This document shows, piece after piece, positions 60,985-63,591 of a DNA stretch of 64,000 nucleotides; the first letter of the stretch is position 1, and the number at the start of each line of letters is the position of its first letter. The stretch lies in NCBI GenBank assembly GCA_005879585.1, contig VBKG01000312.1, positions 4,400 through 68,399 on the forward strand, in the 5' to 3' direction. The notes under the pieces are model-generated. The model was not told the origin of the DNA and ran no database searches. It was given only the letters and a program-made list of their open reading frames with translations. The position numbers and the translations under genes were made by a program. The stretch comes from Deltaproteobacteria bacterium. GTDB taxonomy: Bacteria > Desulfobacterota > Binatia > DP-6.

Positions 60985-62202
60985 ATGGCCGACGTCACCT
61001 GGGACTTCACCGGCAAGGTCGCGCTCGCGAGCGGCGGCGCATCGGGGATCGGCCGTGCGGCAGCGACGGCGTGGCTCGCGGCCGGAGCGCGGGTCGCGAT
61101 CCTCGACCAGAGCGCCGAGCGCCTCGAGGAGACGACAGGAGCCCTCGGCGCAGATCGGCTGCTCGCAATCTCCGGCGACGTCAGCGAGCCGGCCGACTGC
61201 GACCGCGCCATCGACGAGACGGTCCGGCGCTTCGGTCGCCTCGACGTCGTGCTCAACGCGGCGGGCATCGGCGGCATCGGGCGCGTGTGGGAGCTCGATC
61301 CGCTCATCTGGGACCGCGTGCTCGCCGTCAACCTGCGCGGCACGTTCCTCCTGACCCGCGCCGCGACGCGCTGGATGGTCGAGCACGAGCGGCCCGGGCG
61401 CGTCATCAACATCGCGTCGACCAACGCGACCGTGCCGACCACGGGGCACTCCCCGTACTGTGCGTCGAAGGCGGGCGTCGTCGCGCTGACGCAGGTCGCC
61501 GCGCTCGAGCTGGCCCCCCGTCAGGTGACCGTCAATGCGATCGCGCCGGGGCCGGTCGACACGAACCTCACCGCGCCGCTGTTCGCGATGGCCGGAGCGC
61601 GCGAAGAGTTCCTCCGCCACATCCCCCTCGGCCGGGTCGGCCGTGCCGAGGACATCGCGCAGATGATCCTCTTCCTCGCTTCGGACGCGGCGGAGTGGGT
61701 GACCGGACAGTGCTTCTACGTCGAGCAAAAAATGGTGAGGCGTCCGTTTGTCCGTTGCCCGGACGCTTGCCGGGGCTGCAGAGTCGTCGCCACCCGAAGG
61801 GGAGGAGGTCGACATGGCGGCGCGCAGACTCGAGACGATGGTTGCGCTCCTGATCCTGGTCACCGGCATGACGCGACCGGTCGCCGCGGCCCCGCGGCCG
61901 AACGTCGTGTTCATCCTGACCGACGACCAGCGGTGGGACACGATCGACAAGAAGCACTCGGTCGACGGCATCACTCCCGTCATGCCGAAGGTGCAGAGCC
62001 TGCTCGTGAGAAGGAACTCTACAACCTCGACCGCGACGCGTTCGAGCTCACCAACGTCGCCGGCAACTCGGCGAACGCCGGGCTGATCGCTCTCATGGCC
62101 GCCCGGCTGCGCGAGCTCGACCCGGGCTGGACCGGGAGCGCCCCATCGGCGCCGGCGTCCGCGGCGCCACCCGACTACGCCAACGACGACGCGTTCGAGT
62201 GA
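60985..62202 (+). CDS. SDR-family oxidoreductase with a non-native 3' extension (reads through into a sulfatase remnant)
   Basis: TGKVALASGGASGIG cofactor site, YxxxK (YCASK); SDR domain complete by about 61737, then an A6 run (61727-61732) and about 150 extra codons. Confidence 0.75.
   Translation: MADVTWDFTGKVALASGGASGIGRAAATAWLAAGARVAILDQSAERLEETTGALGADRLLAISGDVSEPADCDRAIDETVRRFGRLDVVLNAAGIGGIGRVWELDPLIWDRVLAVNLRGTFLLTRAATRWMVEHERPGRVINIASTNATVPTTGHSPYCASKAGVVALTQVAALELAPRQVTVNAIAPGPVDTNLTAPLFAMAGAREEFLRHIPLGRVGRAEDIAQMILFLASDAAEWVTGQCFYVEQKMVRRPFVRCPDACRGCRVVATRRGGGRHGGAQTRDDGCAPDPGHRHDATGRRGPAAERRVHPDRRPAVGHDRQEALGRRHHSRHAEGAEPAREKELYNLDRDAFELTNVAGNSANAGLIALMAARLRELDPGWTGSAPSAPASAAPPDYANDDAFE
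61814..62202 (+). pseudogene. Sulfatase remnant (N-terminal about 60 aa joined out of frame to the C-terminal tail; catalytic core deleted)
   Basis: RBS GGAGGAGG; MAARRLETM..PNVVFILTDDQRWDT sulfatase N-terminus in one frame; ELYNLDRDAFELTNVAG..LRELD sulfatase C-terminus in another. Confidence 0.6.
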
Positions 62203-62205
62203 CCG

Positions 62206-63591
62206 TCAGTCGGCGAGGGCGGCGTCGATGGCGCGCACGAGGCGTGCCGGCGCCGACGATCTGTTCCTCCATCTATTCGCTCGGCGCTCACGCGACGCTG
62301 CTCCGCGACCTGCTCGTCGTCCTCGGACACGAGCGCGCAACGCTCGTCGGACACTCCTTCGGCGGCGGCGTGGCCATGCAGTTCGCCCATCAGTTCCCCG
62401 AGTGGTGGCCTCGGCCGCGAGGTGAGCCTGTCTGATGGCAGTAGGCCCCCGGATCGCACGGTCCTCACCCGACCTCGCGGTGTTGGGGGCCTCGATTTCC
62501 AGACCCACCCCGCCAGACCGGCCGATAAACTCCTCGAGGAGCTGGCGGGCCTCGTCGTCGGTGTACTGCTTCGGGGGCGTTTTCATCAGGTATGCCGCCG
62601 GAGCCTCCAGCGGCCCGCCGATCCCGCGGTCGAGCGCCAGCTTGGCGCAGCGCACGGCGTCGATCACCACTCCGGCGCTGTTCGGGCTGTCCCAGACCTC
62701 CATCTTGACCTCGGCGCTGAGCGGCACGTTCCCGAAGGTCGTCCCCTCCATCCGGATGTAGGCCCACTTCCGGTCGGTGAGCCACGGCACGTAGTCGCTC
62801 GGCCCGACATGGATCGCCTCCGCCGGCAAGGCATAGTCGAGCTGGCTGGTCACCGCGCCGGTCTTGGAGATCTTCTTGGACTCCAGCCGCTCGCGCTCCA
62901 GCATGTTGTAGAAGTCCATGTTGCCGCCGAAGTTCAGCTGGTAGGTCCGATCGAGCCGCACGCCGCGCTCGCGGAACAGGGCGGTGAGCACGCGGTGGAC
63001 GATCGTCGACCCGACCTGACTCTTGATGTCGTCGCCGATGAGCGGCAGCCGGCGCTCGGCGAAGCGCCCGGCCCAGTACGGCTGCGAGCAGATGAAGACC
63101 GGGATGCAGTTGACGAAGGCGCAGCCCGCCGCCAAGACCTGCTCGACGTACCACTTGGTCGCCATCTCCGAGCCGACCGGCAGGTAGTTCACGACCACGT
63201 CGGTGCCGGTGTCGCGGAGGATCGTCACGATGTCGGCGGTTGATCCCCGCGCCTTCTTGACCTTGGTACTGACGTACTTGCCGAGCCCGTCGTGCGTCAT
63301 GCCGCGGTCGACGCCCACGTTCAGTTTCGGCACGTCGGTGAACTTGATGGTGTTGTTGGGAGCGGCGAAGATCGCCTCGGACAGGTCCAGACCGACCTTG
63401 CTCTCGACGACATCGAAGGCGGCCGAGAACTCGATGTCCCGGACGTGATAGCCCCCCAGATTCACGTGCATCAGCCCGGGGACGAACTCGTCTTCCCCGG
63501 CGGTCCGATAGAACTCGACGCCCTGCACCAGCGATGACGCGCAGTTGCCGACCCCGATGATCGCCAGCCGGACCGTTTGACCGTTGTGCAT
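62206..63591 (-). CDS. ino1: myo-Inositol-1-phosphate synthase
   Basis: [25 protein letters not shown]-binding N-terminus and conserved core to ..[14 protein letters not shown]; the last roughly 95 codons are Arg-rich and antisense to the pseudogene region. Confidence 0.85.
62264..62420 (+). pseudogene. Fragmentary duplicate (about 140 bp, about 90% identity) of the alpha/beta-hydrolase gene
   Basis: [41 protein letters not shown] matches residues of the 60007 gene (DNA 60233-60370). Confidence 0.6.

Follow-up and report, generated by a model that had tools for sequence, protein, structure and literature searches.

Gene debris at a strain-variable junction beside the ino1 cassette of an uncultured soil bacterium

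The locus considered here lies towards the end of a 64,000-nucleotide (nt) stretch of DNA from a Deltaproteobacteria bacterium (GenBank assembly GCA_005879585.1, contig VBKG01000312.1, positions 4,400 to 68,399 of the forward strand), which is called the window throughout; positions given without a contig name are those of the window. On one side of the locus is a cluster of hydrolase, short-chain dehydrogenase/reductase (SDR) and sulfatase genes, on the other a convergent four-gene cassette (ATP-grasp, ABC transporter, ATP-grasp and ino1), and what lies between them is very probably (at roughly 85%) non-functional gene debris at a strain-variable junction, in which at least five separate lesions are stacked. 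The debris is real but ordinary: it is standard bacterial pseudogene decay, through multiple deletions and homopolymer insertions or deletions, at a break in synteny. An earlier prediction made from the sequence alone had described a recombination or deletion scar with a cluster of gene pieces, and a cluster of pseudogene fragments is indeed present; a reading of the sequence and its open reading frames (ORFs) from 59800 to 64000 located all the listed fragments, at or near the places assigned to them. Because the defining features tested are missing, the fragments do not qualify as members of their enzyme families, and ino1 stays an Ino1 with an altered tail.

The comparison was made with metagenome contigs from ENA and JGI assemblies. 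Five of these (L171, L172, L173, L174 and L176) are near-identical to the window, L171 being a 13-kb contig, 99% identical and from the same population, and L001, from a different sample, has 1 base different from the window in 1828. L003 and L164 represent a sister lineage at about 84% nt identity, L164 coming from a soil metagenome-assembled genome (MAG) labelled 'Deltaproteobacteria bacterium'. Look-ups of the exact products of the hydrolase gene hydA and of both possible SDR fusions gave no match in the protein collection used, and the window itself is therefore absent from that collection. A scan of species-representative genomes returned only relatives at 62% identity or less, none of them with shared synteny.

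Lesions in the SDR, sulfatase and ino1 genes

The truncated SDR gene (60979..61724, + strand) keeps native residues 1-248 of 271, or of 269 if translation starts at the ATG at 60985. Its product matches the Pfam families adh_short_C2 (E = 8.5e-61, protein residues 21-249) and adh_short (E = 5.5e-52), carries the cofactor motifs SGGASGIG and LNAAGI, of the Gly-rich TGxxxGxG and NNAG types, and has the catalytic Ser and YxxxK in INIAST and YCASK, as aligned to the FabG structures 4jro and 2uvd. Its C-terminus is incomplete, the window reading YVEQK whereas homologues and contigs from the same population read YVDGG. The C-terminal 23 residues (DGGQSLVALPPYIDLVERLLGAT), including the conserved DGG, have been lost with the stop, and the intact tail is present in L002, L162 and L171-L176. 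The original prediction had taken the SDR domain to be complete by about 61737; instead, it is cut at 61724, with the 23 native residues missing. The cut is a 116-bp deletion, here called D1, whose junction at 61724..61725 has no microhomology and which took 70 nt of the SDR 3' end with the stop (the last 23 codons) and 46 nt of spacer. On both flanks, the near-identical contigs share 97.7-100% identity with the window, and at the site itself L171, L172, L173 and L176 have exactly 116 extra bases, encoding VDGGQSLVALPPYIDLVERLLGAT and a stop, while L174 carries 115-116, with one base of uncertainty at its boundary. Up to 61724, L002 shares 99.7% identity with the window; it diverges there and continues into YVDGGQSLVALPPYIDLVERLLGAT and a stop, which is the same native tail. 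To judge from its sequence, the truncated SDR is probably inactive.

The SDR has also been damaged independently in other lineages, while hydA is intact in all of them. Two frameshifts are found in the SDR of L003 (1133-1868), a frameshift and an internal deletion of about 40 codons in that of L164 (965-1604), and a frameshift in that of L162 (2478-2490), caused by an extra C at window position 61409. The gene looks dispensable in these lineages too.

The sulfatase is left in three pieces. The leader remnant (61725..61813, + strand) consists of a surviving 89 nt, with an A6 run at 61727-61732 and a ribosome-binding site (GGAGGAGG) at 61801-61808, followed by an ATG at 61814. It aligns with the spacer upstream of the intact L164 sulfatase (GCAAAAACTGGTGAG...GGGCTGCAGAGT) with a score of 36, reached by 0 of 500 shuffles, and is 100% identical in L172 and L174. 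The A-run is A6 in the window versus A5 in sister lineages, L164 having GCAAAAACTGGTGAG at the homologous place. The N-terminal remnant (61814..62009, + strand, 65 codons) opens with MAARRLETM and comprises a signal peptide followed by the start of the DDQ metal-binding segment (PNVVFILTDDQRWDT). It lies off the SDR frame and, continuing out of frame as far as a stop at 62086, forms an ORF of 90 aa, for which a Pfam search returned no match. Over 65-70 aa it shares 68-76% identity with the N-termini of the intact sulfatases of L164 and L003 (76% to L003), and its DNA is 91.7% identical to L164 1903-2035. The C-terminal remnant (62010..62202, + strand, 64 codons and the stop), which stands by accident in the frame of the truncated SDR, is 82% identical in nt to L164 3109-3304 and contiguous with 141 C-terminal sulfatase codons in L162.

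Between the last two pieces, at 62009..62010, is the junction of a second deletion (D2), at which about 1.07 kb of core, or about 358 codons including the Cys-x-Pro-x-Arg site, is missing. Since L164 1903-2035 corresponds to window 61877-62009 and L164 3109-3304 to window 62008-62200, the joint is ambiguous by a 2-nt overlap (GA); the deletion is frameshifting, and DNA matching L164 2036-3110, with CCPSRS, is missing from the window. Neither a Cys-x-Pro-x-Arg core nor any other sulfatase was found within the window. It had been predicted that the sulfatase N-terminus survives in another frame at 61814 with its ribosome-binding site and that the catalytic core is missing, and both statements hold. 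The sulfatase is certainly inactive. Intact counterparts exist in the sister lineage: L164 encodes a 490-aa sulfatase (P0121) with CCPSRS, in the order hydA-SDR-sulfatase, and L003 has the same gene order and a sulfatase with CCPSRS of which at least 410 aa are encoded before the contig ends. More distant sulfatase homologues (P0127 and P0128) stand in different contexts and were of no use for reconstruction.

The D2 junction is shared widely, an identical 90-aa ORF across it being present on six other contigs from different projects and assemblers. A different deletion is found in L162, whose flanks on either side match the window at 99% or more: here the sulfatase N-terminus is absent and the 141 C-terminal codons are kept, the joint leading from 25 bp after the stop of an SDR with intact tail to about sulfatase codon 350. 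The D2 alleles keep the N-terminal piece that L162 lacks and lack the 141 codons that L162 keeps; the two alleles cannot derive from each other, and the sulfatase has therefore been lost at least twice. In the window, D1 and D2 together restore the register, so that the SDR frame stays open across all three sulfatase remnants (leader, N-terminal and C-terminal) and gives an ORF of 407 aa (60979-62202). Its last 64 codons (62008-62199) are the sulfatase C-terminal tail (EKELYNLDRDAFELTNVAG...), as had been predicted for the SDR extension.

Facing these remnants is the ORF of ino1, encoding inositol-3-phosphate synthase (62206..63591, - strand, 461 aa), of which residues 1-369 are native. The product is similar over its full length to Ino1 of M. 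tuberculosis (1gr0; E = 3e-146, query residues 6-356), and its closest relatives have 374-376 aa and 83-93% identity in alignment, the highest value being that to P0001; P0001 and P0005 end in EIEAPQHREVG and a stop. In the window, a frameshift six codons before the stop swaps QHREVG and the stop for 92 residues (370-461, encoded by 62206-62484), a non-native Arg-rich tail that is antisense to the debris and replaces the last six native residues. The predicted stretch of about 95 Arg-rich codons antisense to the debris is thus confirmed at 92 residues, but the native stop, which had been thought lost, is still there: alignment to relatives locates it as the TGA at 62465..62467 (- strand), present but out of frame. 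It is bypassed by the change of a G6 run to G5 (62485..62489; C5 on the coding strand), a -1 frameshift. The run has five G in the window and L001 and six in L162, L163, L173 and L175, and with one C restored the end reads CAA CAC CGC GAG GTC GGG TGA. The exact 461-aa product is also found on L001, and because that contig comes from a different sample, sequencing error is unlikely for the frameshift. The extended Ino1 probably still works, because only the poorly conserved last six residues are replaced.

Hydrolase ghost, thioredoxin remnant and direct repeats

The intact alpha/beta-hydrolase gene hydA (60007..60930, + strand, 307 aa; Pfam Abhydrolase_1, E = 6e-32) has a product that is 100% identical in L002, 86% in L003 and L004, and 87% in L053. 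Downstream, between the sulfatase remnants and the native end of ino1, lies a hydA-type ghost (62273..62432, + strand), made up of codons 77-119, a 29-bp internal deletion and about 10 further codons. Its first segment (62273-62402, 130 bp) is 89.2% identical to hydA 60237-60366 (E = 6e-45), and the match resumes after the 29-bp gap and runs to 62432. The nucleophile elbow G-x-S-x-G is present as GHSFGG, and Abhydrolase_1 is matched with E = 1.1e-6 at profile positions 48-92 only; with about 53 of about 300 codons, no start codon and the region of the catalytic Asp and His missing, the full fold is not encoded. The ghost is identical or 1 base different in L001, L162 and L163. The original prediction had described a ghost about 90% identical to the hydrolase at 60007 and including GHSFGG. 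The fragment itself stands, but its derivation as a simple copy of the neighbour does not, the identity to hydA of L003, L053 and L164 being 91.5%. An origin from hydB, the second hydrolase of L164, was considered and rejected, with an aa identity of 39% only.

The sulfatase stop and the ghost are 67 bp apart, and this interval (62206..62272, - strand), which the original prediction had missed, is the 3' remnant of a thioredoxin gene (..EEQIVGAG) with one frameshift; the WCxxC active site and the fold are absent, only the last 22-26 or so codons being left. Derivation of this segment from the SGL gene that follows the L164 sulfatase was rejected, SGL giving no match. Together with the sulfatase tail, the thioredoxin remnant forms one copy (C1, window 62018-62267) of a direct repeat whose second copy lies beyond the window end and was likewise missed. 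The second copy, at L171 6450-6710, is 90% identical over 261 bp to window 62018-62267 and runs into a full-length thioredoxin-like gene. Within L171, positions 1144-1393 and 6450-6710 are 90% identical direct repeats, of about 260 bp, that flank the ghost and the four-gene cassette. Beyond the second repeat, L171 continues with the thioredoxin, SGL and hydB genes, 84-88% identical to L164, and in L164 SGL and hydB directly follow the sulfatase. The repeats differ at 3 of 182 sites within L171 (1144-1328 versus 6450-6634) and at 11 of 182 between the window copy and the second copy of L171; moreover, the first copy in L171 and L163 carries second-copy variants (window 62104-62172). This pattern indicates gene conversion between the repeats in some strains.

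The gene ino1 is the last of a conserved cassette of ATP-grasp, ABC-transporter, ATP-grasp and ino1 genes (window 63606-64000, - strand; L001 192-2835). The cassette alone recurs in another lineage (L166) at about 84% identity and in a different context; there it has an alginate-export protein upstream, an ECF sigma factor downstream and a phage-type integrase about 4 kb away. Outside the window, upstream of the first ATP-grasp gene of the cassette, L171 has an unusually A+T-rich spacer of about 200 bp (6254-6449) with three close CCGTTAAC motifs; the spacer resembles an operator or a promoter serving the cassette. About 3.7 kb past the window end, the thioredoxin-like gene of L171 (6641-6985, - strand) has a TGA (6877-6875) in place of the first active-site Cys (..VLVDFWAPW-TGA-ASCRAIGP..), and a perfect hairpin, CGAUCG-GUC-CGAUCG, stands 14 nt after that TGA. 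Either the gene is a pseudogene with a nonsense mutation, or it encodes a selenocysteine (UxxC) thioredoxin and has a stem-loop resembling a selenocysteine insertion sequence (SECIS).

Competing explanations and the proposed history

In the mechanism proposed by the original prediction, a single-base slip in the A6 run removed the SDR stop, and the native ino1 stop was deleted with its surroundings. Homopolymers are prone to slippage, and it is correct that one A fewer at 61727-61732 would give GAG CAA AAA TGG TGA, that is, a stop after VEQKW. However, the identical A6 is kept, 89 nt upstream of the sulfatase ATG, in the five near-identical contigs that have the 116 bases and an intact SDR (269/271 aa), alignment to orthologues puts the native SDR end at VDGGQSLVALPPYIDLVERLLGAT and not at VEQKW, and solved FabG-type structures have DGG at the window's EQK. 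The lesion behind the read-through is D1, which ends two bases before the A6, and with the ino1 TGA also still in place, the proposed mechanism has next to no likelihood. It is extremely unlikely, too, that the fused ORFs are functional novelties kept by selection, either as an SDR that has gained a C-terminal domain of 159 residues or as an Ino1 extended by a basic tail. In favour are the openness of both frames and the presence of the 461-aa Ino1 in two assemblies. Against this, the SDR extension consists of translated spacer and of sulfatase leader read out of frame, and is found in the window only; the Ino1 tail runs antisense to debris of thioredoxin and hydrolase, and a G+C content of 70% leads one to expect long open frames; and both extensions are absent from relatives at 99% identity. 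For the debris itself, no Rfam match was obtained at a permissive threshold, nor did scans for promoters, terminators and repeats yield anything meaningful. Because the debris looked more conserved than ino1 in comparison with L162 and L163, it had been suspected of encoding a functional RNA or a small protein. Alignment of window 62008-63879 with L162, and of 62151-63573 with L163, gives a mosaic: the debris and the 3' part of ino1 are at least 99% identical, whereas tracts of several hundred bp within ino1 diverge by 10-13%. Such a pattern is consistent with homologous recombination between lineages or with metagenome contigs that are chimeric. The suspicion was rejected, the tracts of at least 99% identity extending well into ino1; the apparent hyper-conservation results from recombination or chimeric contigs and not from constraint, and the debris needs no function.

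An assembly artefact, by which a chimeric or collapsed metagenome contig hides genes that correct assembly would restore, is very unlikely as an account of the locus. Assemblers did struggle here, L002 ending 25 bp after the SDR stop and L001 at window 62173, and D1 is unique to the window. However, L002 ends exactly where L162-type and other alleles diverge, which explains the fragmentation of assemblies at this place, contig breaks fall where real alleles (D2 type and L162 type) part, and the junctions lack the shared k-mers needed for a de Bruijn chimera. The D2 junction recurs exactly in the six contigs already mentioned, the adjacency of ghost, thioredoxin remnant and ino1 in L001, L162, L163, L171, L173 and L175, and the G5 frameshift in L001. 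Because junctions recur in other contigs, mis-assembly is excluded for everything except D1. The original prediction had named mis-assembly hiding intact genes as what would overturn it, and this was not found: other contigs share the sulfatase junction (six), the ghost (at least six) and the ino1 frameshift (one). For the ghost alone, it is possible, though doubtful, that it is a decayed local duplicate of the adjacent hydA, drifting neutrally since duplication. It is of hydA type and not of hydB type, it has the orientation of hydA and it lies 2 kb downstream of it. On the other hand, it matches the window's hydA (114/128) no better than it matches the orthologues of sister lineages (117/128), its short second segment is clearly nearer to L004, and, counted by codon position, it differs from hydA at 3/0/11 sites (P = 7e-4 against equal thirds), a distribution that true orthologues also show among themselves. 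The last objection is weakened by the fact that gene conversion from functional alleles could give the same codon-position pattern; since conversion between copies can mimic this signal, third-position bias as proof of a foreign origin was downgraded once gene conversion between the L171 repeats had been recognized.

Altogether, stacked decay at a variable junction accounts best for the locus, with at least five lesions in its history. In the oldest, common to all contigs of the population, the last 25 or so codons of a thioredoxin gene would have been joined to codon 77 of a second, diverged hydA-type gene, leaving the ino1 cassette between the two direct repeats, each with a sulfatase tail and a thioredoxin tail. 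The second, diverged hydA...thioredoxin copy would have been partly duplicated or imported, and its interior replaced by the cassette. The other four lesions are visible in the sequences themselves. The widespread frameshifting deletion of about 1.07 kb knocked out the sulfatase core, a different deletion doing so in the related strain L162, and a 29-bp deletion lies inside the ghost. The 116-bp deletion, observed in the window only, then took the SDR tail and stop in the window's sub-lineage, and one G was lost from the G6 run, six codons before the ino1 stop, in the window and L001. A more specific scenario, which is unlikely and is offered tentatively, holds that the cassette moved between contexts: it would have come on DNA of a relative about 6-13% diverged and integrated via the roughly 260 bp of homology, leaving the repeats and the scrap of hydA type, and in co-existing strains the sulfatase and SDR beside it would then have been disabled repeatedly and independently, pointing to selection for their loss rather than neglect. 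The repeated-loss part draws on D1, D2, the L162 deletion and the frameshifts in L162, L003 and L164.

Several points weigh against the main reading of stacked decay. D1 has so far been found only in the window among the contigs compared and is confirmed by no other contig or read set, and an assembly error is possible at that junction. The order and mechanism of the oldest rearrangement are drawn from a single 13-kb contig of the same population (L171); the window does not reach the second repeat. Only about 9 bp separate the right end of D2 from the left edge of the second repeat copy, a proximity with a chance of about 2%, for which the model offers no explanation. Moreover, some ENA assemblies may re-assemble the public reads behind JGI contigs, so that independent samples are fewer than contigs.

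Strain-level polymorphism and comparison with known systems

For annotation, the 407-aa 'SDR' and the 461-aa 'Ino1' are not to be taken as new domain fusions, and the 90-aa ORF and a 78-aa 'hydrolase' ORF are fragments of pseudogenes. The locus neatly illustrates structural polymorphism between strains of an uncultured soil bacterium, with at least three alleles occurring together across a set of related soil metagenomes and with assemblies breaking at precisely the points where these alleles part; it could therefore serve as a strain marker. A second structural polymorphism is found just upstream of hydA, at window 59259-59267, where a 66-kb contig of a sister lineage (L053) has 5.3 kb of extra DNA (L053 3887-9218), with genes for a cytochrome P450 and for a beta-propeller/lactonase-like protein of 964 aa; contig L172 begins at window 59242.

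Campbell-type integration by a single crossover, or partial tandem duplication, leaves direct repeats. The ghost and cassette between two repeats of about 260 bp resemble such a product, and the novel joint, at which the thioredoxin 3' end, from downstream, meets hydA codon 77, from upstream, is of the kind expected from a tandem duplication. Unlike a simple product of either process, the repeats share no more than 90% identity overall, little of the putative second copy is left, and the window portion contains no integrase, attachment (att) site or insertion sequence. Neither was a scar of a mobile element, integron or insertion sequence recognizable, with no notable inverted or direct repeats in 61500-62700 and no transposase or integrase gene between 59800 and 64000. 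Homology-facilitated illegitimate recombination, reportedly described by de Vries and Wackernagel in 2002 for DNA of related strains, offers another parallel: fragments diverged by about 6-13% adjoin resident genes, and most of their differences are synonymous, which is what descent from a relative's functional gene would give. It differs in that gene conversion between resident copies explains the same pattern here. Among formylglycine-dependent sulfatases (PF00884 and PF16347), the remnants correspond to residues 1-65 and to the final 64 residues of P0121 (490 aa, from the soil 'Deltaproteobacteria bacterium' MAG) in the same hydA-SDR-sulfatase order, whereas the window is without the catalytic core and the Cys-x-Pro-x-Arg motif and has the two pieces in different frames.

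Another close parallel is the decay of pseudogenes under deletional bias, a kind of decay that is already known, and no new biological question is opened by the locus. The accumulation of many small deletions in dead genes is expected of bacterial pseudogenes (Kuo & Ochman, PMC2817411, PMC2916853; Danneels et al., PMC6054270). Here too, inactivated genes have been worn down by several separate deletions, of 29 bp, 116 bp and about 1.07 kb, and by single-base insertions or deletions in homopolymers, and different strains carry different lesions in the same gene. In contrast, the organism here is a free-living soil bacterium with a large genome of 70% G+C, not a host-restricted one, and the lesions are not scattered but concentrated in 0.8 kb at the synteny break.

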